From Clostridia bacterium (GTDB taxonomy: Bacteria; Bacillota; Clostridia; Oscillospirales; Acutalibacteraceae): DNA of 64,000 bases. Both the position numbers and the translations under genes were made by a program. The DNA lies in assembly GCA_017481115.1 (NCBI GenBank), contig JAFUPP010000039.1, forward strand, positions 1 to 64,000. The letters are read 5' to 3'. A model generated the notes under the pieces. It had not been told where the DNA came from and made no database searches. It was given only the letters and a program-made list of their open reading frames with translations. This document shows positions 27,391-44,063 of the stretch, in pieces. Each line of letters opens with the position of its first letter. The first letter of the stretch is position 1.

Positions 27391-28770
27391 ATGAACTTAT
27401 TAGCTAAAGAACAGGGATTTTTCAAAAAAATACTTCTTATTGCTCTGCCTATTGCTTTGCAGGGTCTTATTACCACGGGTGTAAACGCTATGGACACCGT
27501 TATGGTGGGCTCCCTTGGTGAGACCGAGCTTTCGGCGGTAGGTCTTGCAAACCAGTTTATCAATATTTTCCATATTTTTTGTATGGGTATCGGTATGGGT
27601 GCCTCGGTGCTTGTGGCAAGATATTTCGGTATGAAGGATGATTCCTCCTTAAAAAAGACAATAACCATTATGCTTCGTCTGGTGCTTATTATGTCGGCTC
27701 TGTTTTGCATAGTTACCATCTGTATTCCGCGATACATAATGATGATTTACACAAACCAGACGGATTTTATAGATTTAGGTGTGGAGTATCTTAACTACTC
27801 GGTAATAACCTACTTTTTACTCGGTCTTTCCACCACCTGCACCATACTTCTTCGAAACGTAGACCAAATAAGGATACCTCTTTACACCTCTATCGGTGCA
27901 TTTTTTGTAAATATCGGAGCAAACTACCTCTTTATTTTCGGACCCTGGATATTCCCTGAAATGCGTGTTGCGGGTGCAGCTGTAGGTACGCTTATTGCCC
28001 GTATATTTGAGGTTTTGGTAATCTGCGGATATCTCTTTTTTAAGGAAAAGAAGATATGCTACCGTTTAAAAGAATTCTTTAAGCCGGTGGGTGTTTTGTG
28101 GAAGGAGTATGTGAGGATCAGTATTCCCGTACTCATAAGCGACGGCATTTTAGCGCTGGGTAACAGCTCGGTCACATCGGTAATCGGACATCTTGATGAA
28201 GGTTTTGTGGCGGCAAACTCCGTCACTACCGTAACACAGCAGTTAAGCTCGGTTATGATACAGGGCTTCTCTCAAGCGGGAAGCATCGTTACGGGTCAGA
28301 CCTTGGGACAGGGCGAGCGTGAAAAGGCACGAAAGCAGGGTTACATATTTTTAGCACTTGGATTTTTGTTCGGTCTTGTTGCGGCGGGTATCGTAACGCT
28401 TATCAGTGGCCCGATGATATCGGCTTATAATCTCACCCCCGAAACCGCAAAAATAGCCGAACAGTTAATGCTGTCCATAAGTATAATAATCGTGTTCCAG
28501 GCAACAAACTCCATTATGACAAAGGGAGTTCTTCGTGGCGGCGGTGACACCAAAATGCTGATGCTTGCCGACAACATCTTTTTGTGGATATTTGCTCTGC
28601 CGTTAGGAGTATACGCCGGATTTTTTACAAGTGCCTCACCCTTTTGGATATACCTTTTATTAAAGAGCGACCAGATATTAAAGGCGTTTTGGTGCGTAAT
28701 AAGGCTTAAGGGCGGCAAATGGATAAAACGAATCCTCACCGACGACGAACTTGAAAAGCAAAAAAAATAA
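27391..28770 (+). CDS. MATE family efflux transporter
   Basis: Twelve transmembrane helices and the N-terminal motif ILLIALPIALQGLITTGVNAMDTVMVGSLG. Confidence 0.85.
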   Translation: MNLLAKEQGFFKKILLIALPIALQGLITTGVNAMDTVMVGSLGETELSAVGLANQFINIFHIFCMGIGMGASVLVARYFGMKDDSSLKKTITIMLRLVLIMSALFCIVTICIPRYIMMIYTNQTDFIDLGVEYLNYSVITYFLLGLSTTCTILLRNVDQIRIPLYTSIGAFFVNIGANYLFIFGPWIFPEMRVAGAAVGTLIARIFEVLVICGYLFFKEKKICYRLKEFFKPVGVLWKEYVRISIPVLISDGILALGNSSVTSVIGHLDEGFVAANSVTTVTQQLSSVMIQGFSQAGSIVTGQTLGQGEREKARKQGYIFLALGFLFGLVAAGIVTLISGPMISAYNLTPETAKIAEQLMLSISIIIVFQATNSIMTKGVLRGGGDTKMLMLADNIFLWIFALPLGVYAGFFTSASPFWIYLLLKSDQILKAFWCVIRLKGGKWIKRILTDDELEKQKK

Positions 28771-29160: not shown

Positions 29161-29265
29161 TCTTACATCTTCGCTACCACCTTACTTAAAAAGCAGTGAA
29201 CATTTCGGACGTTTACCAGAGATAATTTATCTAAAACAATGCTTTTCCCAATCGAATGTGTTAAA

Positions 29266-29305
29266 AACCACGGTAACGCTATCGCGTACCGTGGTTTTTT
29301 GCTTT
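29266..29305 (+). terminator. Second intrinsic terminator in the same intergenic region
   Basis: CCACGGTAACGC-tatc-GCGTACCGTGG followed by TTTTTTGCTTTTT. Confidence 0.7.
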
Positions 29306-29410
29306 TTATACCACTAAAATTTCATCTGTTTTAGATGCCTAGCAGTTTCATAACTCCAAATAAACTTGGGTGAGAAACCAATTTCTCACTATATGAACGC
29401 TTCGGTTGGT

Positions 29411-32400
29411 TTATTTTGTATAGTAGTCTTTAAGATTGTTGATTTCGGCTGAGGTCAACGTGCCGTTAAAGATAAGAAGATCATCAATGTACGCGTTGGT
29501 GGGACATGCCTTTTTGCCGTCTGCGCCTACAACGAAGGGTAGGTCGGTGTCAAAGGATATGCCCTTAAAGCCTTCATCAAGCTCGATAGAATAAACCTTT
29601 GAGAAATTATAATAGAAATTCATTAGGTTTTTCTCACGGTCGAATTCTAAAATTGTATGCACCCAGCCTGTCGGCACGTCATCGGGATAAAATACGATAT
29701 CTCCTCTTATTGTGCCGTTATAACCAACGTTAGCCTTAAAGTGATTACTGCGAAGCGACAGTACGATTCCGGAATTTAAGCCCTTAGTCCAGTCACTGTT
29801 TGCATAAATAACCGTATCGGATGTTATTTTGTTCGGCTTTATCCAGGTGGCAATAGCAAAGGAATCAGTGCCGAAGGTTACGTCGTCAAGCTGAAGCAAT
29901 GAGTTGGAATTAACACTTGCAGACTGTCCGTAATATCCTGCAATGTACTCTACGGTGCCGATTTCGGTTGCATTTGTGCCCTTAAGCGCATTTGCATTAC
30001 CGTCAAAGGTGTATGCCGCGGTCAGCTTGTTGTTATTTACGTAGCTTGTTAATTCCTTATCGGTGGTGGCTCCGAAATAATAGTTATTGTAGTAGTTTTT
30101 AAGATTTGTTATATCGGTTGCATCGGGAGCTACGTTCAGGATCATAAGATCGTCAACCGTTACCGTAATACCTGTTGGGAAGGACCAGTTGCCATTTCCG
30201 TCTGCACCTACGGTAAAGGGAAGGCCCGTATCAAAGCTCTTGCCGTCCAATGCTTCAACAAGGTCTACCGATATGATCTCTTCAAAGTTAAAGTACATCT
30301 TCATCTTACGGTTTTCGCGGTCAATGACAAATAACGAATGCGACCATCCGCCGTAAGGAATGTTTTTGTTCTTATAGTCGGCGCGGTTGGTACCGTCAGC
30401 AGCGTTAAGAGCATAGCCAAGCTTTCTGAGTGATACAAGGTAGCCGGGGTTTTTACCGCTTGCCCAGTCCTTATTTCCAAACAAGATACCCTCATTAGTG
30501 GTGCTGAAGGTTCCGTCAAGCTTATGCCACATTGAAACCGCAAAGGAATTCGAACCTACGGATATATTGGGAATGGTGATGTAATTGCCGTTTGAAACAA
30601 CCGCACCATTGCCGTAGATACCGCTGTTATAGGTTACACTGCCTACCGCCGTTCCTGTATCGGCGTTGTTTGCGGCAGTAAGATCTCCGTCAAAGTTGTA
30701 CATTGCAACTATCTTGTCGCTTGATACGAAGTTGTTAATATAACCTGCACTTCCCTGTGTAGGAGTAGCAAAGGAATCAACGTTTGATGCAGGACGTGCG
30801 GGAGGAGTAAGATTATCGGTAAAGAAATTTTGAGGAATGTATGAGTCCCAATTATCTCTGCCCTCGATGCCCAATGCATTGCAAACGGTTGCGGGGATAT
30901 CGCGAATGTAAAGTGAAAGCTCGTTGGTCTTGTTTATCGTCTTACCGGTTGCACCAAAGAAGATATACTTTTCATCATCAGTCCAACCGCCGTGTCCCTT
31001 ACCCGTACCGCCGTGATCGGTGGTTACGATAAAGAGGGTATCGTCAAGTATTCCCGCCTCTACGACCGCGTCGTATATGCGTCCTATACGTGCGTCGGTC
31101 TGCTCAATGGCATCAAGATGCGCCTGGGTGCCGTAGCCATAGGAATGACCCGCACTATCGGGAGCGTTAAACTGAACGAACATAAGCTCGGGAGAAGCGT
31201 TTTTAATGGCGTTGATTGCGCTTTGGGTAACGCCGTCCTCATCGCCCGTTCCCTTAACGACATTAATACCGTTCTCAACAATACCGATGTTGATATTATT
31301 CCAAGCCGTATATGAATGAAGCACAGCCGAAGGCATTGCCTCTCTTACAATACGGAAAATGGTAGGATATTCATCCGACATTGCATAAGGAGTATTTGCT
31401 GTTATTTCGTTTGTGAGTCCGTGAAGCGACGGAATAACACCCGTCATAAGTGAACCCCAAGACTGTGCGGAAATAGACGGATTTGCACAAATACCTGTAT
31501 AGGTTGTTGCACCGTTTGCAAAAATAGCATCAGTTTCGGGGGTATTTGCCTCCTCAAACCATGCACCTGCGCCGTCTGCTCCTAAGATTATAACGTGCTT
31601 ATAATTAAACTCCTTGTTAATAAAAATATTATCAACATAAACTTTACCCGTTGCAGAAATATCAACGGTATGCTCTCCATACTCCAAATCACTTGAGGTA
31701 TAAACTATCTGGTCAAAGTTTACGTCAATGCTGTCGTCGTAAAGATTTACCTCAACAGGCTCACCGCCATCTACCGACACGGTCATTTTTCCCTGAGATT
31801 TACTTGTATATGAGCCTATTTTAAAACCTTTGCCCGTGTATTTGAATTGCATTGTGCTGCCTCCCGTGTTTGTAAAAAGTGCCTTACGGGTCGAAAGTAA
31901 AAAGGTATTTTTTGTATTCCATTCACCTGTTAAAGTCGGTTCAAGCTCATCCGCCTCAAAGGACTCGTAGGTGACGTCGGCCTCTTCGATACTGCCAAAA
32001 CTGCCGTTGATCTTAACTGCGTCTAAGCAAGCCTTTCCGAAAACACGAATGGATGCGGTATGCTCACCGCTTTCAAGCGACTTACTGAAAATAACCGTTT
32101 TAAAATCATTATCCATTGAATCAGAATAAAGACTTACAATTTCTTCAGCCGCACCATCGATGGAAATGAACATTTTGCCCTGAGTTCTGCTCTTGTAGGA
32201 TACAAGCTCAATAATACTACCGTCAAATGCAAAATCTATCGTTCCACCGCTAACGGTAGTCATTCCGTAGCCGCCGCTTAAAAAGTAGCTCTTGCGCTCG
32301 GACCAATTATCCGAAAAAACCACCTCTTCAAGCTCTTCTGCTTCATAGGTAACGGCGGCAGTTGATGCAACCGCCGTAACCGAAAATAAAACAGAGGTTA

Positions 32401-32455
32401 GAGCAACCAAAACGACTAAAACTAATGAGACTATGGGTTTAAATCTTTTTTTCAT
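29411..32455 (-). CDS. Secreted multidomain type I phosphodiesterase / nucleotide pyrophosphatase (AlkP superfamily) with two N-terminal beta-sandwich modules and two C-terminal LamG-like domains
   Basis: Signal peptide. Two repeats (SYKSRTQGKMFISIDG and SYTSKSQGKMTVSVDG). NPP-like core (VIILGADGAGAW, SWGSLMTGVIPSLHGL, FNAPDSAGHSYGYG, VTTDHGG). Two concanavalin/LamG-like repeats (FAVSMWHK..., FAIATWIKP...). RBS GGAAGGTG. Confidence 0.8.
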   Translation of the reverse strand: MKKRFKPIVSLVLVVLVALTSVLFSVTAVASTAAVTYEAEELEEVVFSDNWSERKSYFLSGGYGMTTVSGGTIDFAFDGSIIELVSYKSRTQGKMFISIDGAAEEIVSLYSDSMDNDFKTVIFSKSLESGEHTASIRVFGKACLDAVKINGSFGSIEEADVTYESFEADELEPTLTGEWNTKNTFLLSTRKALFTNTGGSTMQFKYTGKGFKIGSYTSKSQGKMTVSVDGGEPVEVNLYDDSIDVNFDQIVYTSSDLEYGEHTVDISATGKVYVDNIFINKEFNYKHVIILGADGAGAWFEEANTPETDAIFANGATTYTGICANPSISAQSWGSLMTGVIPSLHGLTNEITANTPYAMSDEYPTIFRIVREAMPSAVLHSYTAWNNINIGIVENGINVVKGTGDEDGVTQSAINAIKNASPELMFVQFNAPDSAGHSYGYGTQAHLDAIEQTDARIGRIYDAVVEAGILDDTLFIVTTDHGGTGKGHGGWTDDEKYIFFGATGKTINKTNELSLYIRDIPATVCNALGIEGRDNWDSYIPQNFFTDNLTPPARPASNVDSFATPTQGSAGYINNFVSSDKIVAMYNFDGDLTAANNADTGTAVGSVTYNSGIYGNGAVVSNGNYITIPNISVGSNSFAVSMWHKLDGTFSTTNEGILFGNKDWASGKNPGYLVSLRKLGYALNAADGTNRADYKNKNIPYGGWSHSLFVIDRENRKMKMYFNFEEIISVDLVEALDGKSFDTGLPFTVGADGNGNWSFPTGITVTVDDLMILNVAPDATDITNLKNYYNNYYFGATTDKELTSYVNNNKLTAAYTFDGNANALKGTNATEIGTVEYIAGYYGQSASVNSNSLLQLDDVTFGTDSFAIATWIKPNKITSDTVIYANSDWTKGLNSGIVLSLRSNHFKANVGYNGTIRGDIVFYPDDVPTGWVHTILEFDREKNLMNFYYNFSKVYSIELDEGFKGISFDTDLPFVVGADGKKACPTNAYIDDLLIFNGTLTSAEINNLKDYYTK

Positions 32456-32614
32456 AATTTCACCTTCCGTTTTTACAGATAAAACATCTGCTGGTTTTAC
32501 ATCATTTTATCATATAAGTTACTTTTAAAATTACACTGTATTAGAAAAATTACTGTAGTATTTTTACATTAATGTGTATTTTTTTGCCATTTTGTAAAAA
32601 ATAACACATACAGA

Positions 32615-32642
32615 TTGACAACGAGCTTTTAAGCTATATAAT
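32615..32642 (+). promoter_or_regulatory. Promoter of the AraC-family gene
   Basis: TTGACA (32615-32620), a 16-nt spacer, and TATAAT (32637-32642). Confidence 0.6.
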
Positions 32643-32659
32643 GAGCTTGAGGTGAGATT

Positions 32660-33517
32660 ATGCAAAAATTATATCATTTTCATTTTAAGGATGAGGTTTT
32701 TTTCGGGTGTCATAAAAGCTTTAACTATGCGCTTACGGATAAGACATTGGGTCTTTACGTTCGGTTACACGACCACGATTATTATGAGATAGCGCTTTTA
32801 TCTAAGGGAAGGTGTATCCATTACGTAAACGGAACCGAATTCACTCTTTCACCCGGTACTCTTATTTTTATGCGCGACACAGATACTCACTGCTTTATGC
32901 CGATTGATAACAAAAACTACGTGCTGCATAACATTTCCTTTAACAAATCGGTTTTTGAAAAACTGCTTATATTTTTGGACGACTCGTACGAGCTTTCCCA
33001 TCTGTTCAACTCAAAGTATCCGTATAGCGTAACGCTCACGCCGATCGAAAATGAACATCTGACAAAACGAATAGAGCTGTTCTCCTGCATACCGCCGACA
33101 GAGATAAACTCCGAGGGAAAAAAGCTTTTGTTTAAGATGATAACCGATTATTTTTTGCTTAAGACAGATACTGAATTCAACTTTCAAAAGCCGCCTCCAC
33201 AGTGGTTTATAGATATGTGTACGACAATGACGCTAAAGGAAAATTATCAAAGGGGTATTTCGATTATGCCCGAAATTTCCAATAAGTCTCCAAGCTATAT
33301 TGCAAAAGCGTTTCAAACCTATATGAATACAACGCCGACCGAGTTTGTAAATCAACTGCGATTAAATTATGCCGAGCGATTATTACTTCACACCAATACC
33401 TCTATAATCGATATTTGCTATTCTGTGGGCTTTAACAACGAAAGCTGGTTTTACAAAAAATTTAAAGAGCGTCATAATATGACGCCCTTTCATTACCGTA
33501 AGCTGCACAAGGGATGA
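32660..33517 (+). CDS. AraC-family transcriptional regulator (cupin sensor plus HTH)
   Basis: C-terminal AraC HTH (NTSIIDICYSVGFNNESWFYKKFKERHNMTPFHYRK) and an N-terminal cupin-like domain. RBS GAGGTGAG. Confidence 0.85.
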   Translation: MQKLYHFHFKDEVFFGCHKSFNYALTDKTLGLYVRLHDHDYYEIALLSKGRCIHYVNGTEFTLSPGTLIFMRDTDTHCFMPIDNKNYVLHNISFNKSVFEKLLIFLDDSYELSHLFNSKYPYSVTLTPIENEHLTKRIELFSCIPPTEINSEGKKLLFKMITDYFLLKTDTEFNFQKPPPQWFIDMCTTMTLKENYQRGISIMPEISNKSPSYIAKAFQTYMNTTPTEFVNQLRLNYAERLLLHTNTSIIDICYSVGFNNESWFYKKFKERHNMTPFHYRKLHKG

Positions 33518-33555
33518 TCGGCAGGGATTATACGGGCAGCAGTACAGGTACAATA

Positions 33556-33600
33556 AAAGCGTGATGTCGAAATTCTTTCGACATCACGCTTGATTTTTAT
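33556..33600 (+). terminator. Terminator of the AraC gene
   Basis: AAGCGTGATGTCGAAA-ttc-TTTCGACATCACGCTT followed by GATTTTTAT. Confidence 0.8.
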
Positions 33601-33685
33601 GCTTTAATTGTCCGTCTCGAGTTAGTTCTCGGTCATTATGCGTTTTATCCACTTGCCGCCCTTAAGCCTTGTTCACTGCTTTTTG

Positions 33686-34615
33686 TTATTTTATTTCAAA
33701 CTGGGCGTAGATCATAAAGTGGTCGGAGTGCTGATTTGTGTCTACCGCACTTGAAACAAGCTTAAAGCCCTTATCGTACATAATGTTATCAATACACTTT
33801 GTGGGCCAACCGTCGTTGGGAATCCAGCTTGCAAGCTGATTGTTCTGATTGTTTACCTTGGAGAGTGATTTTACCTGGTCAAATTCGCTGATTGCCTCAA
33901 CATTAAAGTCGCCTGTAAGCAAACAGTTCTTTTTGCCCTTCATAAACTCCTCTACCTCTGCAAACTGCGAGGTTCTTGCCTCTGCGGTATTGTAGGTGAA
34001 GTGGGTATTGAAAAGATTTACCTTTTTACCCTGAACGGTGATCTCTACCATCTGTACCACCCTCTGCTCATAGCCGAAGGAGTTTATCTGCTTTGATGCC
34101 TCATTTGTAATGGGATACTTTGAGAGAATACCGATTCCGTATTCACCACCGATACTTGCGGGAAGATCTATTGCCTTTACAAAGGTGTAGTATTTATAGC
34201 CCGTAAGCTCCGACAGCACCTTCATAGTATCAAGATTTTGTGAGCGACCCGAAAGACGGTCTATCTCCTGAAAACCTACAATGTCAATATCCTTACTTGT
34301 GATATCGTTTGCAATAAGCTGCATATTGTGTCCGCATTTCGAACCGTTTGCGATGTTATAAGATGCGACCTTCAACATTATTCCCTCCTCTTGAGTGGGT
34401 TTACTTTCAGTTTCGGTTTCGGCGCTTACCACCGGTGTGCTTTCTACCGACGAAACGCTTTGCTCGGATGATTCCTCTGCGCTGCTCGACACGGTCTCCG
34501 TCTTGCTTGACACGGCAGATATGGTGCTTGTAACCGAAGAAACCTCCTCATCACCGCAGGCAGAAAAGCTGAACATCAGCATAAACATTAAAACTAATGC
34601 AATTGCTCTTTTCAT
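33686..34615 (-). CDS. Secreted lipoprotein of the endonuclease/exonuclease/phosphatase (EEP) family
   Basis: Signal peptide with lipobox (FSFSAC|G), a Ser/Glu/Thr-rich linker, and an EEP domain (ASYNIANG...VGFQE...TGDFN...SDH). RBS AGGAGGG. Confidence 0.8.
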   Translation of the reverse strand: MKRAIALVLMFMLMFSFSACGDEEVSSVTSTISAVSSKTETVSSSAEESSEQSVSSVESTPVVSAETETESKPTQEEGIMLKVASYNIANGSKCGHNMQLIANDITSKDIDIVGFQEIDRLSGRSQNLDTMKVLSELTGYKYYTFVKAIDLPASIGGEYGIGILSKYPITNEASKQINSFGYEQRVVQMVEITVQGKKVNLFNTHFTYNTAEARTSQFAEVEEFMKGKKNCLLTGDFNVEAISEFDQVKSLSKVNNQNNQLASWIPNDGWPTKCIDNIMYDKGFKLVSSAVDTNQHSDHFMIYAQFEIK

Positions 34616-34689
34616 AATATACCCTCCTGATTTATCTACACTAATTTTACCATTATAATAAAAAAAGTCAATCCACTATTTACCTAATA

Positions 34690-34723
34690 TTAAGAAAAGC
34701 CCTACGGAAAATTCCGTAGGGCT
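34690..34723 (-). terminator. Terminator of the 1417-aa gene
   Basis: GCCCTACGGAA-aatt-CCGTAGGGC followed by TTTTCTT on the minus strand. Confidence 0.7.
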
Positions 34724-34753: not shown

Positions 34754-37700
34754 TTAATTAAATGCAAACTCTGCATAGAGCATATAGTGGTCTGAATGCT
34801 GAGGATTGGGAGCATACATACCGTCGCTGATAAGCTCAAGGTCATCTGTATAAAGAATGTGGTCGATATAGTCGGTGGCCCAGTTATCAGTGTTGATGTA
34901 TGAATGATACTTGCTATCGTTTACGAGATTAAGACCTACTGCCTTGATTTCGCTTACTGCCTCGATGTTTGTATCACCGGTAACAATAACATTTGAAAGA
35001 CCGCTAACATAGTTCTTGATCTCATTGATCTGGGTTGTTCTGATATTAACATTCTCCCATGAAAGATGTGTATTAAGGAAGTTGACTGTTGTTCCCTCAA
35101 CATCGATCTTTACGTGCTGGAGAGCTCTCTGCTCAACGCCTGTTGAGGTGAGAAGCTGATATGTGGTTTCGGTAATGGGATACTTTGAAAGGATACCGAT
35201 ACCATATTCACCGCTGTTGCCGCTTGAGCCTGGGATGTTTATGGTCTTGGTATAGTATGCATACTTATAACCTGTGAACTCCTTAAGCTTTGCCATTGTA
35301 TCCTGAAGCTGTGAACGGGTTGCGTTTTTATCGACCTCCTGGAGACCTACGATGTCGATGTTGTGGTTAACGATATCGTTTGCGATGGTCTGGAAGTTGT
35401 GTGAAACGTCTCTGCCGTTTGCAATGTTGTAGGTTGCTACACGAATGTTGGGTCTGTTGGGCTTAAGAACGATGGCGTCGATATTTGCCTTTGCATTTGC
35501 AACAAGGCGAACGGTGTGCTTACCGTTACTAAGATCGGATACGCTGAATACTGTCTTCTGGTAGTCCTGATCGATAGTATTGGAACGGAGGTTAAATACG
35601 TTAATCTCAACATTGTCAACATAAACGACTACACGGCCGTATGTGGTTGACTTGTAAGCGATAACATCAAAACCTGCACCCTCGAATGAGAACTCAACCG
35701 ACTCACCGCGGTCAAGCATAACTGCTTCGTGGCCCGAAAGCTTCCAAGCGTATCTTACATCGTTATCTACAACATTGTTGTTAATATCCTTGGAGATACA
35801 AAGGTTTTCTGCCTCAAGAGCTACGCCGTAATCAACTGTGATGTTGATTATACCCTTGATGCCGTTCATATTGTAGGTGATAACGTCGGCAAGTGCGCCT
35901 GCCTCGTACTTAATTACGTTGCCTTCTACGGTAACCTTTCCGTTCTCTGCAGAAGCGGTAAGACCTGTCTTATCAAGTCCGTTAATGAATGTGTTTTCAA
36001 TCTTGAAGGAAGCGGTGTTCTTGGTGAGGGTCTTGTCGATAGGATCAAAACCTGCCCCTCTTTCTGCGATGTCAAATATCTCACCTGCTAACTCAATGCC
36101 GTCGAGAGCATTGTAGAAGAGGGTGGGACGTGCAGCATTTGCGTTCTTGGTTTTTGCAGTAACGATATCAACAGAATGGAATCCGTCTTCAAGAACTGCA
36201 CCGAAGATGTGCTTCTGGTATGCGGGTTCAGCGCTGTAAAGGTCGATGATACCATATGACTTTCCGTCGATGATAACCTCGATCTGACCGTAGGTGTTTG
36301 AGGTGTATGCATTGATAGCAAAAGCTGTTCCGTCGAATGCAAATGCATAGCTGTCACCGGCGTCGGTGGATCTCATTGCAGTGCCGTTTACGGGACCCTT
36401 GACGTTCTGAAGGCTCTGCCAGTTACCCTTGTAGATAACACATGCATCGTCTGCATCGACATAGGTCATTTCGCCAATGCCTGCCTTATAGCTTTCGTTG
36501 AAGGGGAATACTGCATTACCTGCAATCTTTACGGTTCCATCGGTAACGGTCTGAGTCCAGGTACCCTCAAGGTATGCGGTCTCTGAGCCTGTACCGGTGA
36601 ATAATACTGCATCGTCAGCTGCAACAAATACACCCTTGTTTGCGGGATAAATATTTGCACCTGAAATTGAGAAATTGTATCTTGTGTTGGTGTCAACAAC
36701 CTTAATGTTTGCACCGTTAAGGGTTACAACGCTCTTTGCGGGGGTGGTTACCTTCTGACCGTTGAGGTCGATGGTGATGTCTTTTGTAATGTTGATGCTC
36801 TTATCAACCGATGTTGCCCAGTTAACCTTAACTGTTGCACCTGCGGGAGCAAACTCAATAGCCTTGAGAAGATCGTTGCCGCCGTGCTCACCGTTGATGT
36901 AGGTATCCATACCGTAACCAACTGCGTTTACGAGAACAACGGAGCCTGTAAACTTACCAAAACGGATTCTGAAATCTCTTACGTTTTCATAATCCATAAA
37001 CATATTGCCTGCACCTGAGGTCTGGCTATCGTGTGACCAGTTGGTAGCAATACCGTTTACTACTAAGGAGTTTGCACCTGCACCTGTAGTACCGGGATCG
37101 AGAGGAATGAATATCTTGTTCCATCCGGCTTTAACGCCCTGATCAATAAAGAACTGATCGTAGAAGATCATTCTGATACCGTTCTTACCGGTTGAACCAA
37201 CGCTTGATGTGAACTCTACAAAGAACTCAACAACATTTGTTGCTGCATCTGCCTTCATATTGGTGATGCAGTTTGCCTCGAAGTAGATATACATTTCAAG
37301 GAACTCTTCACCGTAAAGGTTAAGAGGAGTGCTTGCTACGTGGTAGGAAACTGCGGTACCTGCTGCGGTGTGCTGTACGGAGGATGCACCGATAACTGCG
37401 TTGTCGCCGTTACGGTTACCTGCGATAACTGCCGACTCACCTGAATAGGTGGTGTGATATGCAGACTGACCGAGGGTCTCCTTGTAGTAAACCTCATACT
37501 TATAGTTATTTGAGTTGTAAGTGATGGTGACAAACTGTCTGCCCGGAAGGGTTGTATCGATAGCCGAAACTGTGTAGTTTGCGGGATCAACAACTGCACC
37601 CTTATCGGTTACGATAAAGTCTGCTGCTGCGGTCTGCTCGCCGCGCTTATAAACAGTCTTCTTGCCCTCGATGTTTACATCCCAATTCGACTCGCCTGCT

Positions 37701-39007
37701 ACTGTTGAAAGCTCAACTGCTGCTACTGCGATGTCGCAAAGTGATGTGTTGTGGCTGTAGAATGCAATGTAATGGATGGTCTGGTCATTGGCAAAGCCCT
37801 GGAATGCCTGACCGTTGTAAGCATTTGATGTGCCCTTGATGCTTGCAGTGAAGTTTACACTAATGTAGTTCCAGCCTGCAGTAAGGGTGCCTACGCCCTT
37901 GTTACAAAGGTGATACTCGATATAGTTATCACAGGGAGTAGTTGTTGATGATGTATTGTCTCGTCTTTCGAACATACGGAATATGATGGATGCATCGGAG
38001 GGATCGTCGACCCAAAGCCATGCGTTAACATAAAGCTCTCCGCCCATGAAATCATCATAAAGATTTGACATCTTAATACCGTCTTCGCCGCCGACCTTGA
38101 TCATAGCACCGGTCTTTGCGACTGCGGAAATCTGATCAACATAGTATGCCTTGGTTGCGGGAACACCTTCGGTGCCGCCGGTGAGGGTAGCGGTATCAAC
38201 AACGCTGAAATCCTCTGCAGCAGAGGTACCGATCTGGTACATCTCGTCTGTGGTCTTGTCTGATGCGGGATCAACAAGAAGGATCTTCTCCTCGGGTTCG
38301 GGCTCGGGAATGGGAAGGTCTGCAACCATTGCTGCGCCTACCGAACCTACACGGGTGTTACCGGTGTGGCAGTTTACGATATCGCTTGATGCCTTTGTCT
38401 TGGCAGGATCGATAACATTATAGGTGTTTGTTCCGTCGGTAATGGTGAAGGAGGAAATACCGATGTTGACCGAGCCATATACTGCGGTACCTGCGGTTGA
38501 GTTCTCGTGAACTGTCATAGCAGAAAGTGTGCCGTTCTCTACGAGTGCTGCGTGTGCGGGCTGGTTGTAGTTTGCGTTACCTGCTGAACCCTGTGTGAAG
38601 GCTGAAAGCTTTAATGAAACCTTGTTCCATCCTTCGTTAAGGTTGCCTGTTTTATACTCCTTACGGATTGCCCACTTTTCTGAATAGTTGCTTGCTACGG
38701 TTGCATCAAAATGTCCTGCGGGGAAAAGTGATACAAGGAAGTCATACTGAGGCTCTACATTTGCCTTTACTCTGCCGATGTAGATCCAGATCTCTGCGGT
38801 GTACTTTGAAAGATCCGATCCGTCAATGGTAAAATCGGTAAAGTCATATGCAAAACCGCTCTTTCTTACGTCTGATGCATCTGAATAGTATACATATGCA
38901 TCATCGGAAGGATTAACATCCTCTGCGGATGATGCGACAATACCGCTGATCGCTACTGTTGAGACGATCATAAGAACTGCTAAAAGAATACTTAATACTT
39001 TTTTCAT
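34754..39007 (-). CDS. Giant secreted or surface protein (1417 aa) with a C-terminal EEP domain
   Basis: Signal peptide. The N-terminal roughly 1180 aa are paralogous to the product of 39288..42833. Internal YKS..G..V.IDG-type modules are shared with the NPP protein. The C-terminal 235 aa form an EEP domain (VATYNIANG...VGLQEVD...GDTN...SDH) that resembles the product of 33686..34615. RBS AAAGGA. Confidence 0.85.
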   Translation of the reverse strand: MKKVLSILLAVLMIVSTVAISGIVASSAEDVNPSDDAYVYYSDASDVRKSGFAYDFTDFTIDGSDLSKYTAEIWIYIGRVKANVEPQYDFLVSLFPAGHFDATVASNYSEKWAIRKEYKTGNLNEGWNKVSLKLSAFTQGSAGNANYNQPAHAALVENGTLSAMTVHENSTAGTAVYGSVNIGISSFTITDGTNTYNVIDPAKTKASSDIVNCHTGNTRVGSVGAAMVADLPIPEPEPEEKILLVDPASDKTTDEMYQIGTSAAEDFSVVDTATLTGGTEGVPATKAYYVDQISAVAKTGAMIKVGGEDGIKMSNLYDDFMGGELYVNAWLWVDDPSDASIIFRMFERRDNTSSTTTPCDNYIEYHLCNKGVGTLTAGWNYISVNFTASIKGTSNAYNGQAFQGFANDQTIHYIAFYSHNTSLCDIAVAAVELSTVAGESNWDVNIEGKKTVYKRGEQTAAADFIVTDKGAVVDPANYTVSAIDTTLPGRQFVTITYNSNNYKYEVYYKETLGQSAYHTTYSGESAVIAGNRNGDNAVIGASSVQHTAAGTAVSYHVASTPLNLYGEEFLEMYIYFEANCITNMKADAATNVVEFFVEFTSSVGSTGKNGIRMIFYDQFFIDQGVKAGWNKIFIPLDPGTTGAGANSLVVNGIATNWSHDSQTSGAGNMFMDYENVRDFRIRFGKFTGSVVLVNAVGYGMDTYINGEHGGNDLLKAIEFAPAGATVKVNWATSVDKSINITKDITIDLNGQKVTTPAKSVVTLNGANIKVVDTNTRYNFSISGANIYPANKGVFVAADDAVLFTGTGSETAYLEGTWTQTVTDGTVKIAGNAVFPFNESYKAGIGEMTYVDADDACVIYKGNWQSLQNVKGPVNGTAMRSTDAGDSYAFAFDGTAFAINAYTSNTYGQIEVIIDGKSYGIIDLYSAEPAYQKHIFGAVLEDGFHSVDIVTAKTKNANAARPTLFYNALDGIELAGEIFDIAERGAGFDPIDKTLTKNTASFKIENTFINGLDKTGLTASAENGKVTVEGNVIKYEAGALADVITYNMNGIKGIINITVDYGVALEAENLCISKDINNNVVDNDVRYAWKLSGHEAVMLDRGESVEFSFEGAGFDVIAYKSTTYGRVVVYVDNVEINVFNLRSNTIDQDYQKTVFSVSDLSNGKHTVRLVANAKANIDAIVLKPNRPNIRVATYNIANGRDVSHNFQTIANDIVNHNIDIVGLQEVDKNATRSQLQDTMAKLKEFTGYKYAYYTKTINIPGSSGNSGEYGIGILSKYPITETTYQLLTSTGVEQRALQHVKIDVEGTTVNFLNTHLSWENVNIRTTQINEIKNYVSGLSNVIVTGDTNIEAVSEIKAVGLNLVNDSKYHSYINTDNWATDYIDHILYTDDLELISDGMYAPNPQHSDHYMLYAEFAFN

Positions 39008-39229
39008 AATTCTTGTCCTTTCAATTTTTTGTCATCACATTTTGTCTTGCCTTCAAACATAGGTGTTCTGCCCCACCTATATGCGTTTAACGGTAAAACA
39101 TTTTAGACATAATTATCATAACATATCGCATCTCTTTTGTATAGCGTTTTGAAAAGTTTTTCGTTTTGGTAAAGTCTACTTTTAGTTCCCTTTAAAGCCT
39201 TATGCTAACTTAAAATTCTATCAGGATAA

Positions 39230-39263
39230 CAAAAAAGACCCTACGGTAGAAACCGTAGGGTCT
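39230..39263 (-). terminator. Terminator of the 1181-aa gene
   Basis: GACCCTACGGT-agaa-ACCGTAGGGTC followed by TTTTTT on the minus strand. It shares the CCCTACGG core with the terminator at 34690-34723. Confidence 0.75.
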
Positions 39264-39287
39264 AAATTAAACCGTTATAAGCTTAAA

Positions 39288-42200
39288 TTACTTAAGAACG
39301 ATAGCGTCAACGTTACCCTTGCCGATAGCAACGATCTGAACGAGATGCTCTTTATCCTCAAGTGTATCACTTGTGAATACGCTCTTCTGGAAGTCTTCAT
39401 CGATGGTGGAAGAAGTAAGGTTGAATACGCCTACCTCTGTGCCGTCAATGTAAACTGCCATACGCTTATAGCTGGATGACTTATAGGAGATAACCTCGAA
39501 GCCTGTGCCCTCGAAGGTGAACTCAACATACTCGCCGGGATCGAGAACGATTGCTTCGTGGCCCGAAAGTTTCCAAGCATATCTTACATCGTTAGCGATG
39601 GGGTTGTTGTTGATGTCCTTAGAGATACAAATGTTCTCTGCCTCAAGCTTAACGCCATCTGCAAGAGTGATGTTGATAACACCCTTGATACCGTTCATAT
39701 AGTAGGTGATGACGTCGGTCTGAGCGCCTGCCTCATACTTAATTACGTTGCCGCTGACAGTAACTTCACCGTTTACTGCAGAAGCGGTAAGACCGGTAAG
39801 CTCTGCTCCTTCAATGAATGCATTTTCGATTACGAAGCTAGCGGTGTTCTTTGTAAGGGTCTTGTTCATATCAATGAAGTTGTAATCACTAAGATCCTTA
39901 AGCTCACCGACAACCGAAACGGTATCGATTGCGTTGTAGAAGAGAGTGGGACGCTGTGCAGCGGAGTTCTTTGTGCCAAGAGTCTTAACCTGTACAGTGT
40001 GATATCCGTCCTTAACAACGGCACCGAAGATGTGCTGCTGATAGGTCTGCTCTGCGCTGTAAAGATCAAGAGTGCCGTAGCTTATGCCGTCAACAAATAC
40101 CTCTACCTGACCGTAGGTGGGTGAAGTATATGCGTTGAGTGCGAATGCAGTACCGCTGAATGCGAATACATAGCTGTCGCCTGCATCGGTTGATCTCATA
40201 GCATCGTTGTTTACGGGACCCTTTACATTCTTGATGGTCTGCCAGTTGCCTGTGTAGAGAACTGATGCATCAAATATGTCGGTGTCGGTCATTTCGTCAA
40301 TGCCTGCCTTATAGCTGTCATTGAAGGGGAATGATGCGTTACCTGCGATCTTTGCAGTACCGTCGGTAACTGTCTGAGTCCAGCTGCCCTCAATGTAAGC
40401 GGTCTCTGAACCTGTACCCGAGAATACAACTGCACTGCTCTTTGCTGAGAAGTAGCCCTTGTTTGCGGGATAAAAATTTGCACCTGAGAGTGAGTAGTTG
40501 TATCTTACGTTAGTGTCGATAACGGTGATATCGCCGCCGTTAAGCTCAACTATCTTACCTGCAGTAGTGGTAATCTTCTGACCGTTGAGGTCAAGAGTAA
40601 TATTCTTTGTAACCTTGATGCTGTCTGCGATGGACTGCTTCCAGTTAACCTTAACTGTTGCGCCTTCGGGAGCAAGCTCAACTGCCTTGATAAGGTCGTT
40701 ACCGCCGTGTTCGCCGTTGATATAGGTATCCATACCGTAACCAACTGCATTGATGAGTGCGACTGAGCCTGAGAACTTATCAAAACGGATTCTGAAGTTT
40801 CTTACGTTCTCGTAATCCATATACATTTTGCCGCCTGAGGTCTGGCTGTCGTGCTGCCAGTTGGTCTGAACGCCGCCGATTGCGGGTGAATCAGCCTGGT
40901 TACCGTAGGTGCCGGGATTAAGAGGAATGTATATCTTGTTCCAACCTGCAACACAGCCCTGGTTGATGAAGAAGGTATCGGTAAGAAGGATTCTTACACC
41001 GTTATAGCCTGCACCTGAAGCGTTTGAGGTAGGCTCAACAAGAAGTCTGATGACATCTGTTGCTGCATCTGCCTTCATATTGGTGATACAGTTTGCCTCG
41101 AAGTAGATATACATTTCAAGGAACTCTTCGCCGTAAAGGTTAAGAGGAGTGCTTGCTACGTGGTAGGATACTGCAGTACCTGTTGCGGTATGCTGTACGG
41201 AGGATGCACCGATAACTGCGTTGTCGCCGTTACGGTTACCTGCGATAACACTTGACTCACCTGAATAGGTGGTGTGGTATACAGACTGACCAAGGGTATC
41301 CTTGTAGTAGATCTCATACTTATACTCTTTTGAGTCGTAGGTGATGGTGACAAACTGTCTGCCTGCCTTTTCGGTGTTGATAGCAGATACAGTGTAGTTT
41401 GCGGGATCAACAACTGCGCCCTTATCGGTTACGATAAAGTCTGCTGCTGCGGTCTGCTCGCCGCGTCTGTAAACCATCTTCTTGCCTTCGATGTTTACAT
41501 CCCAATCTGACTCGCCGTCAACTGTTGAAAGCTCAACTGCTGCTACTGCGATATCTGAAAGTGATGTGTTGTGGCTGTAGAATGAAATGTAACGAATTAC
41601 GTTCTCAGCTGCAAAGCCCTGGAATGCCTGGCCGTGATAACCGTTAGCGCCGCCCTTGACAACTGCAGTGATGTTCTGTGAAATGTAGTTCCAACCTGCA
41701 GTAAGAGTACCTACGCCGTTGTTGTTAAGGCAGGTTTCAATGTAGTTGTCTGCACTGGAAGTTGCTGAATTTCTGTTGTCGTATCTTTCGAACATACGGA
41801 AGATAATGTTTGCGGTATCGGGATCGTCGATCCAAACCCAAGCATTAACATAGATCTCGCCGCCCATAAAGTCGTCATAGAGGTTTGCGATCTTAATACC
41901 GTCATCTCCGCCAACCTTGATCATAGCCCCTGACTTTGCAACTGCATTTAACTGATCAATATAGTAGGCTGTGGATGAAGGAACTCCCTCGGTGCCGCCT
42001 GTAAGGGTAGCGGTATCAACAACGCTGAAATCCTCTGAGGTGTTAACATTGATCTGAAGCATATCGTCAACACTCTTGTCTGCTGCGGGGTCGATAAGGG
42101 TGATTCTCTCGTCGTAGCTCTCTACGGGAACGGGAATGGGAAGGTCTGCAACCATTGCTGCGCCTACTGCACCTGCACGTGTGTTACCGGTGTGGCTGTT

Positions 42201-42833
42201 TACGATATCGCTTGATGCCTTTGTCTTGGCAGGATCGATAACATTATAGGTATTTGTTCCGTCGGTAATGGTGAAGGATGAAATACCGATGTTGACCGAG
42301 CCGTATACTGCGGTACCTGCGGTTGAGTTCTCGTGAACTGTCATAGCGGTAAGTGTACCGTCTGCTACAAGTGCTGCGTGTGCGGGCTGGTTGTATGCTG
42401 TGTTACCGCCTGAACCCTGTATGAAGTCAGAAAGCTTTACTACCTGCTTATTCCAACCAACATTAAGTTCGCCTGTTTTATACTCCTTACGGATTGCCCA
42501 CTTTTCTGTATAGTTGCTTCCTACGGTTGCATCAAAATGTCCTGCGGGATAAAGTGATACGAGGAAGTCATACTGCGGGTTTACTGCAGCATTGGGCTGA
42601 CCGATGTAGATCCACATCTCTGCGGTGTACTTTGAGAGATCTGATCCGTCAATGGTGAAATCGGTAAAGTCATATGCAAAACCGCTCTTTCTTGCGTCTG
42701 ATGCATCTGAATAGTATACATATGCATCATCGGAAGGATTGGTATCTGCTGCTGATGATGTGACAATACCGCTGATCGCTACTGTTGAAACGATCATAAG
42801 AACTGCTAAAAGAATGCTTAAATACTTTTTCAT
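39288..42833 (-). CDS. Giant secreted or surface protein (1181 aa), a tandem paralog of 34754..39007 that lacks the EEP domain
   Basis: Signal peptide. Long stretches of nucleotide identity with the downstream copy, for example 41078-41340 versus 37238-37500 with roughly 25 mismatches in 263 nt. It ends (...AIVLK*) exactly where the EEP domain starts in the paralog. RBS AAAGGAAAAG. Confidence 0.85.
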   Translation of the reverse strand: MKKYLSILLAVLMIVSTVAISGIVTSSAADTNPSDDAYVYYSDASDARKSGFAYDFTDFTIDGSDLSKYTAEMWIYIGQPNAAVNPQYDFLVSLYPAGHFDATVGSNYTEKWAIRKEYKTGELNVGWNKQVVKLSDFIQGSGGNTAYNQPAHAALVADGTLTAMTVHENSTAGTAVYGSVNIGISSFTITDGTNTYNVIDPAKTKASSDIVNSHTGNTRAGAVGAAMVADLPIPVPVESYDERITLIDPAADKSVDDMLQINVNTSEDFSVVDTATLTGGTEGVPSSTAYYIDQLNAVAKSGAMIKVGGDDGIKIANLYDDFMGGEIYVNAWVWIDDPDTANIIFRMFERYDNRNSATSSADNYIETCLNNNGVGTLTAGWNYISQNITAVVKGGANGYHGQAFQGFAAENVIRYISFYSHNTSLSDIAVAAVELSTVDGESDWDVNIEGKKMVYRRGEQTAAADFIVTDKGAVVDPANYTVSAINTEKAGRQFVTITYDSKEYKYEIYYKDTLGQSVYHTTYSGESSVIAGNRNGDNAVIGASSVQHTATGTAVSYHVASTPLNLYGEEFLEMYIYFEANCITNMKADAATDVIRLLVEPTSNASGAGYNGVRILLTDTFFINQGCVAGWNKIYIPLNPGTYGNQADSPAIGGVQTNWQHDSQTSGGKMYMDYENVRNFRIRFDKFSGSVALINAVGYGMDTYINGEHGGNDLIKAVELAPEGATVKVNWKQSIADSIKVTKNITLDLNGQKITTTAGKIVELNGGDITVIDTNVRYNYSLSGANFYPANKGYFSAKSSAVVFSGTGSETAYIEGSWTQTVTDGTAKIAGNASFPFNDSYKAGIDEMTDTDIFDASVLYTGNWQTIKNVKGPVNNDAMRSTDAGDSYVFAFSGTAFALNAYTSPTYGQVEVFVDGISYGTLDLYSAEQTYQQHIFGAVVKDGYHTVQVKTLGTKNSAAQRPTLFYNAIDTVSVVGELKDLSDYNFIDMNKTLTKNTASFVIENAFIEGAELTGLTASAVNGEVTVSGNVIKYEAGAQTDVITYYMNGIKGVINITLADGVKLEAENICISKDINNNPIANDVRYAWKLSGHEAIVLDPGEYVEFTFEGTGFEVISYKSSSYKRMAVYIDGTEVGVFNLTSSTIDEDFQKSVFTSDTLEDKEHLVQIVAIGKGNVDAIVLK

Positions 42834-43233
42834 TGTTCTTTTCCTTTCGTTGATTATATTTATGACTTAGCCGCTTCCTCCCACCGCTTTCTTACGCTGT
42901 GTGCTCTGCCCCACACAGAAAGGTCAATAACCTGAAATACCCGCAACCTGAATTACGTGCATTTCAGGCTGCTGACCAAATGTAAGAAAGCGAAGAAAGT
43001 TTGCTGCTTAGCCTTCAAAAGGGTAGAATACCCCTTTGTACTTATAATAAATTATAACAATAATTTATATCTGTGTCAATTGATTTTTTTCGGTTAGTTT
43101 TGAACAGAAGTCTACATTTTCTTCCAGTTTTAAAACAAGCTATAAATTGCTACAACATATTGATATTTACAGATTGAATTTTTTTATTTTTGCAGTTATA
43201 ATTGCATCAAACAACACAAAAAAGAGGTGCTTT

Positions 43234-44063
43234 ATGAAGATAAAATATCTTGGAACGGCGGCGGCAGAGGGTATTCCCGCACTGTTTTGCCAATGTGAAA
43301 CCTGTGAAAAGGCGAGAAAAACGGGTATTATCCGTTCAAGAGCACAGGCAATAATTGACGACTGCATTCTGCTTGATTTTGGCCCGGATACCTCTACCAT
43401 ATGGCAGAAAACGGCATCGATCTTGGAAGTATCAGAAGAATTTTCATTACCCACGCCCACGAGGATCACCTAAGTGAGTTTGAGATAGAAAATCTCCGTG
43501 ATTCCTGCTATTCGCATCCAAAAAAGGGAGAACCCTTTAACTTTTACGGCTCAAAGCCGGTACTTGAAAAGCTCGGAAAATATGTAGAACGCTTTACCGA
43601 GCGTGATACCCTTCCCGTACTCAACGAAATGAGTCACGGCAGAACGGTTGAATTTGACGGTTACCGTGTTACCTCGGTACACGCAAAGCATTCGGAGAAT
43701 ACCGGTCCCCTTTTTTACATTATAAATAAGGGTGACAAAACATTGATGTACTGTCACGATACATCCTACTTCCCCGACGACACATGGGAGTATCTCAAAT
43801 CCCATCCCTTCCACGCAGATTTTATATCAATAGACTGTACTGCGGGTAATGACCCCAGAGATTCGGGCAGTCATATGAGCGTAAACCAGAATTTAAAGGT
43901 GCGTGACCGTCTTACAGAGATGGGAATTATGGATGATAGCACCATCTTTTGTCTTAATCACTTCTCGCATAACGGCTATGACGTGCTTCCCGATGAGCTT
44001 GAGCCCATATTAAAGGCAAACGGAATTTATCAGTCAGAGGATAAAAAGGTATTTGAATTTTAG
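43234..44063 (+). pseudogene. MBL-fold metallo-hydrolase with a frameshift near 43395-43440
   Basis: The ATG at 43234 follows AAAGAGGTG. The sequence MKIKYLGTAAAEGIPALFCQCETCEKARKTGIIRSRAQAIIDDCILLDFGPD is in frame 1. The HAHEDH metal-binding motif and the remainder, through the stop at 44063, are in frame 3. This is a disrupted gene, a sequencing error, or a translational frameshift. Confidence 0.65.

Follow-up and report, generated by a model that had tools for sequence, protein, structure and literature searches.

Organization of the locus

The DNA analysed here, referred to as the window, is a stretch of 64,000 nucleotides (nt) from Clostridia bacterium assembly GCA_017481115.1 (contig JAFUPP010000039.1, positions 1 to 64,000). 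Between positions 34754 and 42833 it holds two adjacent genes on the minus strand, copy B and copy A, which encode homologous, predicted secreted multi-module proteins and differ by an EEP domain, of the endonuclease/exonuclease/phosphatase superfamily, that is present at the C-terminus of A and absent from B. A first-pass annotation had described the pair as a recent tandem duplication of a giant surface-protein gene with gain or loss of a domain at the 3′ end. The two transcription units comprise the following features.

43051..43079, minus strand: promoter of B, TTGACA-17-TATAAT with TG, 12 of 12 matches
42897..42918, minus strand: leader hairpin of B, CTGTGTG-GGGCAGAG-CACACAG
39288-42833, minus strand: copy B, a 1181-amino-acid (aa) secreted multi-module protein without an EEP domain and with the C-terminus ...DAIVLK
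39236..39263, minus strand: intrinsic terminator of B, a 12-bp stem with a CCCTACGG/CCGTAGGG core, then a T-run
39115..39143, minus strand: promoter-like site of A, TATACA-17-TATGAT with TG
39059..39080, minus strand: leader hairpin of A, ATAGGTG-GGGCAGAA-CACCTAT
34754-39007, minus strand: copy A, 1417 aa, secreted, with a B-homologous part and a C-terminal EEP domain
35462..39007, minus strand: B-homologous part of A (aa 1-1182), with signal peptide, N-terminal modules without assignment, Big_3 and two CE2_N-like modules
34754..35461, minus strand: C-terminal extension of A, absent from B, with the linker PNRPN, the EEP (Exo_endo_phos) domain and the stop codon
34697..34724, minus strand: intrinsic terminator of A, with the same stem core as that of B and orthologous to the terminator after the fused gene of the related genome described below

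Along the direction of minus-strand transcription B lies upstream of A, which is followed by a lipoprotein EEP gene, and each of the three has its own promoter-like site and a hairpin/T-run terminator. The GC content of the A/B pair is the same as that of its surroundings. A Sec-type signal peptide (MKK-hydrophobic-ASSA) opens both proteins; neither has a lipobox, and Pfam searches with the whole proteins and with segments found no wall or membrane anchor. In the earlier description, both 'giant', at 1181 and 1417 aa, and 'surface', which the anchor searches left unsupported, were overstated.

Homology of the two transcription units

A repeat finder detected collinear A/B blocks at a constant offset of 3820–3829 nt, and blastn aligned positions 35545-39022 with 39374-42848 at 79.07 % nt identity over 3516 columns. 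A codon alignment of the two copies covered 1179 of the 1181 B codons and gave identities of 78 % (nt) and 75 % (aa); its only gaps were three in-frame indels, each one to two codons long. The tandem homology that had been annotated across 34754-42833 was thus found over all of B, but with 79 % nt and 75 % aa identity rather than the 'about 90 %' given previously. Identity was uneven along the gene: it lay at 85–93 % across most of codons 1–240 and in codons 400–600, with the best 50-codon blocks (91–93 %) in the 5′ part and one 30-codon block at 98 %, and fell to 56–67 % in several 3′ blocks (approximately 56 % at the 3′ end).

Homology continued beyond the open reading frames (ORFs). The terminators share a common core, as had been noticed, in that CCCTACGG-N6-CCGTAGGG occurs exactly twice in the 64 kb, at 34700 and 39239, against a chance expectation of 0. 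Both have the properties of rho-independent terminators (12-bp stems of −22 kcal/mol, z-scores of −6 to −7.6 and a T-run), and a few bases upstream of them also align between A and B. Upstream of the genes, the promoter of B has a homologous counterpart in front of the B orthologue of the related genome, and a stretch at approximately 39150–39200, further upstream of the promoter-like site of A, is homologous to the region upstream of the promoter of B. The observation that B ends where A continues into EEP was borne out at the level of residues, with ...DAIVLK-stop in B corresponding to ...DAIVLK-PNRPNIRVATYNIANG... leading into Exo_endo_phos in A. These comparisons support an interpretation of A and B as tandem duplicates of a whole transcription unit, in which ORFs, upstream regions, leader hairpins and terminators all appear homologous. 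The proposed combination of tandem duplication and domain difference therefore holds for the whole unit, and the difference falls exactly at a domain boundary.

The leaders of A, B and the B orthologue of the related genome (contig L012, 1178-1199, minus strand) have in common a 7-bp hairpin with a conserved 8-nt loop, GGGCAGAR. All 21 of the 21 pair cells in the three sequences are paired, and four of the seven pairs show compensatory double changes. No Rfam family matched the hairpin; a search with the leaders gave only a spurious microRNA match, and a scan of the window gave no family reaching the gathering score. The motif had no further occurrence in the window, and the one match of the corresponding DNA pattern in JGI metagenome contigs lay inside a 937-aa ORF and was judged to be due to chance. 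The hairpin could be a cis-regulatory or stabilising RNA element. The leader of B (approximately 210 nt; 42834-43050, minus strand) is strongly structured, the 142 nt adjoining the start codon folding at −43.6 kcal/mol (z = −4.06), and includes a long extra hairpin that is kept in the relative's B orthologue and missing from the approximately 100-nt leader of A.

Comparison with a related genome

The only relative found was a metagenome-assembled genome (MAG) of a related species, GCA_054298255.1, which was reached via exact-protein look-ups. One of its contigs, L012, ends 372 codons into a gene at the position of B, adjoining the MBL-fold gene and carrying the same consensus promoter and leader. 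The fragment, termed R, has 85 % nt identity to B versus 79 % to A, and carries the 2-aa insertion of B. In a second contig, L004, the sequence opens at codon 681 of a gene at the position of A. This gene is fused to EEP through the same AIVLKPNR junction, and behind it come the same CCCTACGGAATTTTCCGTAGGG terminator and downstream promoter as in the window. The L004 fragment is a mosaic, with 86–93 % identity to A and a synonymous divergence (dS) of 0.41 in codons 831–1040, a closer similarity to B in codons 741–800 and a large distance from both copies in codons 1071–1160.

The flanks of the pair differ in their divergence from the relative. Identity is 83 % in nt on the side of B, where the genes for a U32 peptidase, alanine racemase and a 399-aa protein have a dS of 0.75–1.2; it rises to 91–95.5 % on the other side, with a dS of 0.07 for the NPP and AraC genes and of 0.32–0.43 for MatE and DUF1846. 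The idea of the pair as a hypervariable island between near-identical flanks was dropped, since identities of 91–95 % apply only to the NPP/MatE side while the other flank is at 83 % with a dS of 0.75–1.2.

The EEP domain of copy A and its absence from copy B

The 235-aa EEP domain of A was identified by PF03372 (63.6 bits against a cut-off of 24.5) at aa 1191–1407, over the full profile (1–225). In a 71-sequence alignment headed by this domain, N15, E45, H135, D166, N168, D203, S226, D227 and H228 were invariant; judged by this alignment, the metal-binding and catalytic residues are intact, and the domain shares both its fold and all of these conserved residues with the EEP superfamily. An AlphaFold2 model reached a pLDDT of 95.3, and Foldseek matched it with a probability of 1.0 to many EEP structures, at template modelling (TM) scores of 0.67–0.81 and at only 16–21 % identity. 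The structural neighbours include the uncharacterised bacterial EEPs 4ruw, 3mpr and 3g6s, Tdp2, nocturnin, bacterial sphingomyelinase and the mannosyl-6-phosphatase BT3783 of Bacteroides thetaiotaomicron (4c1r); at this level of identity the top matches span several activities and point to no specific subfamily. A PDB sequence search with A gave no match, and NCBIfam gave only sub-threshold matches (MnuA nuclease, xth), far below their cut-offs.

The second EEP gene of the locus lies directly downstream of A:

33686-34615, minus strand: stand-alone lipoprotein-type EEP gene, 309 aa, with its own promoter at 34644-34671

By tblastn the window holds two EEP domains, those of A and of this lipoprotein, and not the three for which a phylogeny had been proposed. 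Three EEP units are present in the relative, namely the fused one and two consecutive lipoproteins, E306 and then E3, compared with two in this genome. The stand-alone neighbour is homologous to the EEP domain of A, but the close resemblance that had been claimed was not found (47 % aa and 55 % nt identity). In a neighbour-joining tree with 43 outgroup sequences, the EEP domain of A grouped with the stand-alone E306 of the relative (100 % bootstrap; 73 % aa identity, compared with 55 % to the relative's fused EEP), which speaks against the suggested derivation of A's domain from the neighbouring gene. The fused EEP of the relative was in turn nearest to the stand-alone lipoprotein EEP of this genome (63 % aa identity, 48 % bootstrap). 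In nt comparisons, the relative's fused gene was the closest match to A (83 %) only over the first 20 codons of the junction; the core was E306-like throughout (70–82 %), and the last residues of A (SDHYMLYAEFAF) matched the fused gene again. Since the EEP domain of A appears to belong to the stand-alone lipoprotein lineage, these phylogenetic placements indicate an exchange of EEP domains between genes of the two kinds, fused and stand-alone, within the cluster. All EEP divergences are old (dS >1), so the exchange would not be recent. In the relative, E3 lies only a few nt behind E306, and the two are not separated by a terminator (L004 2332-4195); the window has one lipoprotein EEP. The lipoprotein EEPs of both genomes all have similar signal peptides and Ser/Thr/Glu-rich linkers.

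The domain difference between A and B could have arisen by loss or by gain. The simpler reading, which is also judged the probable one, is that B lost its linker and EEP domain: within the window the CCCTACGG/CCGTAGGG terminator stem occurs at the A and B sites alone, the relative has an orthologous terminator and already carries the EEP fusion, and one deletion is enough. The gap between the stop codon of B (TAA) and its terminator is only approximately 27 nt, and no EEP remnant was found in it. The converse is that an EEP-less ancestor was duplicated and that A then acquired its EEP from a neighbouring stand-alone lipoprotein gene by fusion or insertion. Gain would fit the grouping of A's EEP core with a stand-alone EEP and the fact that stand-alone lipoprotein EEPs of approximately 300 aa are the common form in Clostridia, occurring in unrelated contexts in more distant organisms; two of these more distant stand-alone EEPs (P0005 and P0013) have no large carrier gene nearby. 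It would also fit distant homologues of the carrier, such as P0122 and P0146, that end at the same module boundary without an EEP, which makes an EEP-less ancestor possible and weighs against loss; in another distant homologue (P0129) the EEP is found elsewhere, in a different architecture. However, the terminators of the stand-alone EEP genes (33557-33591 in the window and one after E3 in L004) are unrelated to the A/B type, so a fusion by deletion with the downstream EEP gene would have left A the terminator of the lipoprotein gene, whereas A and B have one terminator type. An in-frame insertion between the end of the ORF and the terminator would take more steps than one deletion, and the fusion is already present in the relative. 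Gain is accordingly rated as unlikely, although it is the strongest competitor of loss in B.

One further variant of A was seen in the metagenome contig L005, which is identical to A apart from three point differences and a 29-nt frameshifting deletion in EEP (35152-35180, minus strand) with TC microhomology at its bounds. This suggests that disruption or loss of the EEP domain can arise and persist. An origin of the L005 differences by conversion from B was considered and rejected, as they amount to that single deletion and the three point differences.

Mosaic divergence between the copies

Fragment R allowed the first 372 codons of A and B to be compared with an outgroup sequence. Over this region the paralogues A and B (dS 0.42) were closer to each other than B was to its orthologue R (dS 0.56). 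Sites with a single difference comprised 91 with A=B≠R, 108 with B=R≠A and 49 with A=R≠B, and these patterns were clustered in long alternating runs (54 runs versus 99.7 expected, p<=1e-4). In alignment columns 180–210, for example, A and B were 98 % identical versus 86 % for B and R, while in columns 60–90 B and R were 97 % identical versus 80 % for A and B. The clustering indicates conversion tracts superimposed on an older duplication, A and B having apparently been kept partly alike by gene conversion. Such tracts would explain the high identities of the earlier spot checks, and the mosaic synonymous divergence and clustered site patterns against the orthologue of the relative agree with the view of the pair as a recombination hotspot.

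An explanation without conversion is that a conserved N-terminal domain is subject to stronger purifying selection and codon bias, which would make the 5′ blocks so similar. Nonsynonymous divergence (dN) is indeed also low in those blocks, and codon bias can inflate match rates at four-fold sites. At a given set of sites, however, constraint cannot give paralogues a greater similarity than orthologues, as is seen in the 30-codon block (98 % for A and B, 86 % for B and its orthologue), and it does not account for runs of A=B≠R that alternate with runs of B=R≠A (p<=1e-4). This explanation is regarded as improbable.

Age of the duplication and selection

Over the whole gene, Nei–Gojobori (NG86) estimates for A and B gave a dS of 0.63, a dN of 0.18 and a ratio of dN to dS (omega) of 0.29. 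In windows along the alignment dS was 0.1–0.3 in codons 1–240 and approximately 0.31–0.37 in codons 421–600, but 0.5–1.8 in the remainder, with most values >0.8. Four-fold-degenerate sites in identical codon families were likewise heterogeneous along the gene (permutation test, p=0.006). Omega exceeded 0.7 in no window, which argues that both copies are maintained by selection.

The annotation of the duplication as recent is contradicted by these values (whole-gene dS 0.63, and 0.8–1.8 outside the homogenised tracts) and by the presence in the relative of a B-type 5′ gene and an EEP-fused, partly A-type 3′ gene. As both sequence types and the EEP fusion occur in both genomes, all predate the split. 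Judged from these divergences, the duplication is old, occurred before the split from the nearest available relative and has been followed by ordinary paralogue evolution. A young pair whose differences reflect fast divergence of a surface protein could account for the 5′ blocks of 50 codons at 91–93 % identity, the 30-codon block at 98 % and the promoter, leader and terminator common to both copies. It is very unlikely in view of the overall nt identity of 79 %, a dS of 0.8–1.8 over most of the 3′ two-thirds, an omega of approximately 0.3, which reflects neither relaxed nor positive selection, and the existence of distinct B-type and A-type sequences in a relative whose flanks are only 83–95 % identical.

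Assembly of the pair

The pair recurs, in whole or in part, in contigs L001, L002, L003 and L014, which come from four other metagenome assemblies. The B–A tandem with its unique intergenic region was present at 99.99 % identity in L001 and 99.96 % in L014, and the 3′ end of B followed by a complete A was present in L002 and L003 (99.8–99.99 %). An assembly artefact, whether through double assembly of a single gene or through the tandem placement of alleles from two strains, is extremely unlikely: several metagenome contigs do end inside the pair, but the copies differ at approximately 21 % of positions and in domain content, and the B-to-A junction with its unique intergenic sequence recurs in these other assemblies at 99.8–99.99 %. 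Collapse of the two genes, of which the first-pass annotation had warned, is unlikely at 79 % identity and with the tandem recovered at 99.96 % or more in two other assemblies. The contigs that end within the pair (L002, L003, L005, L014 and the relative's L004 and L012) show that it is a fragmentation risk for short-read assembly and not a collapse risk. In one sample the contig break lay between codons 158 and 195 of A, adjoining the tract in which A and B are most identical.

Modules shared with neighbouring genes

Pfam assigned a Big_3 domain at aa 448–506 of A, and two CE2_N-like beta-sandwich modules are located at approximately aa 850–980 and 1064–1182 (PF17996, 38.3 bits in A and 31.2 bits in B, cut-off 27.9). 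A CE2_N-like module thus forms the C-terminus of B, whereas A ends with the EEP domain. The approximately 700 N-terminal residues of A and B matched no Pfam family. A homologous-protein search with A returned only B, which suggests that full-length relatives are essentially limited to this lineage. An exhaustive search of a representative library returned mostly proteins that share only the CE2_N-like modules of approximately 120 aa, which were found in approximately 2000 proteins. Profile scans of the contigs of GTDB species representatives, with the A/B alignment and with the NPP protein described below, detected no relatives, nor did a scan of metagenome contigs with an alignment of A, B and the relative's sequence.

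Two further genes lie beyond the lipoprotein EEP gene:

32660-33517, plus strand: AraC-family regulator, divergent
29411-32455, minus strand: NPP-type phosphodiesterase, 1014 aa, with Laminin_G_3 domains

The NPP enzyme has two N-terminal CE2_N-like modules and two Laminin_G_3 domains, and the region at approximately aa 836–1191 of A/B is homologous to these two modules. By domain assignment, the cluster combines one module type with two unrelated phosphoesterase folds (EEP and NPP).

The NPP and AraC genes are bracketed by 66-nt inverted repeats (28698-28763 and 33608-33673, 79 % complementary). The segment is inverted in L004 of the relative compared with the window, while L002 has the orientation of the window. 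It is 95.5 % identical between the window (29226-33670) and L004 (4233-8708), with a dS of approximately 0.07, compared with 0.3–0.4 for the genes on one side of it and 0.75–1.2 beyond the paralogue pair. This contrast suggests that the segment was exchanged recently between lineages.

On the other side of the pair lies an MBL-fold (Lactamase_B_2) hydrolase gene (43233-44063, plus strand). Compared with L001, the window lacks one A near 43392 (GAAGG to GAGG), and the resulting frameshift leaves 220 aa annotated in the MAG, versus 276 aa in L001, L014 and the relative. The frameshift is either a sequencing error or the mark of a pseudogene.

Proposed history and function

The following history is considered fairly likely as a whole. 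A unit consisting of promoter, leader hairpin, Sec-secreted multi-module ORF and terminator would have been duplicated in tandem before the split from the relative. The copies would then have diverged under purifying selection (omega approximately 0.3), while tracts in their 5′ halves were repeatedly homogenised by gene conversion. B most likely lost its linker and EEP domain by one deletion between the last module and the terminator. A would have kept a C-terminal EEP metal-dependent phosphoesterase, which, following the putative exchange of EEP domains, would not be the positional orthologue of the fused EEP of the relative. Together with the lipoprotein EEP and the NPP-type phosphodiesterase, A may form an AraC-associated set of extracellular phosphoester hydrolases. 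Targeting of these enzymes to a polymer would be the role of the CE2_N-like modules, with B as a putative binding-only paralogue.

Several points weigh against this history. The outgroup comparison is based on one relative, and both of its contigs are cut inside the gene, so that the two fragments could belong to a single B/A chimera. The positions of the breaks, one at either edge of the middle region of highest similarity, would be expected of a two-copy repeat assembled from short reads. NG86 estimates of dS above approximately 1 are saturated. For the proposed function, the AlphaFold2 model of B, built from a two-sequence alignment, had a pLDDT of 29 and carries no fold information for the non-catalytic 1180 aa.

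A more elaborate scheme would treat the locus as a modular variation system, in which interchangeable EEPs are shuffled by gene conversion between a secreted carrier and membrane-anchored lipoproteins, the paralogous carriers become uniform at one end and diverse at the other, the GGGCAGAR leader hairpin, as a hitherto undescribed element, governs expression, and the AraC–NPP segment is inverted between lineages. There seems little chance that this scheme applies in full.

The history proposed above, an old tandem duplication with gene conversion and domain loss, has a parallel in a tandem paralog cluster of Staphylococcus aureus, in which tandem secreted or lipoprotein paralogues recombine between neighbouring copies (PMC2568036). 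As in that cluster, A and B are adjacent same-strand paralogues that appear to evolve by recombination between neighbours, with a mosaic history, conversion tracts that ignore ORF boundaries, and promoter, leader and terminator inside the repeated unit. In contrast to it, there are only two copies, of 3.5–4.3 kb each, which differ by a whole catalytic domain, and the comparison is based on one relative and not on many strains. A also resembles multi-modular extracellular enzymes with carbohydrate-binding beta-sandwich modules, having likewise a Sec signal, repeated CE2_N-like modules, Big_3 and a catalytic domain at one end. It differs from them in that the catalytic domains of this cluster are phosphoesterases (EEP and NPP) rather than glycoside hydrolases or esterases, in the approximately 700 N-terminal residues without a Pfam match and in the apparent restriction of full-length relatives to this lineage.

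The processes involved are known throughout, namely concerted evolution of tandem paralogues, loss and shuffling of domains in multi-modular secreted enzymes, and the EEP superfamily itself, and the A/B pair leaves the current understanding of gene duplication unchanged. For annotation and assembly, the two genes should be taken as real, distinct and under purifying selection, and should not be merged or treated as a collapse; A is a predicted catalytic phosphoesterase fusion and B a predicted binding-only paralogue. The locus offers a clear small example, in an uncultured member of the Clostridia, of what appears to be concerted evolution accompanied by loss and exchange of domains. Its three predicted secreted or lipoprotein phosphoesterases (two EEP and one NPP), with their common targeting modules, could guide a biochemical search for a polymer substrate.

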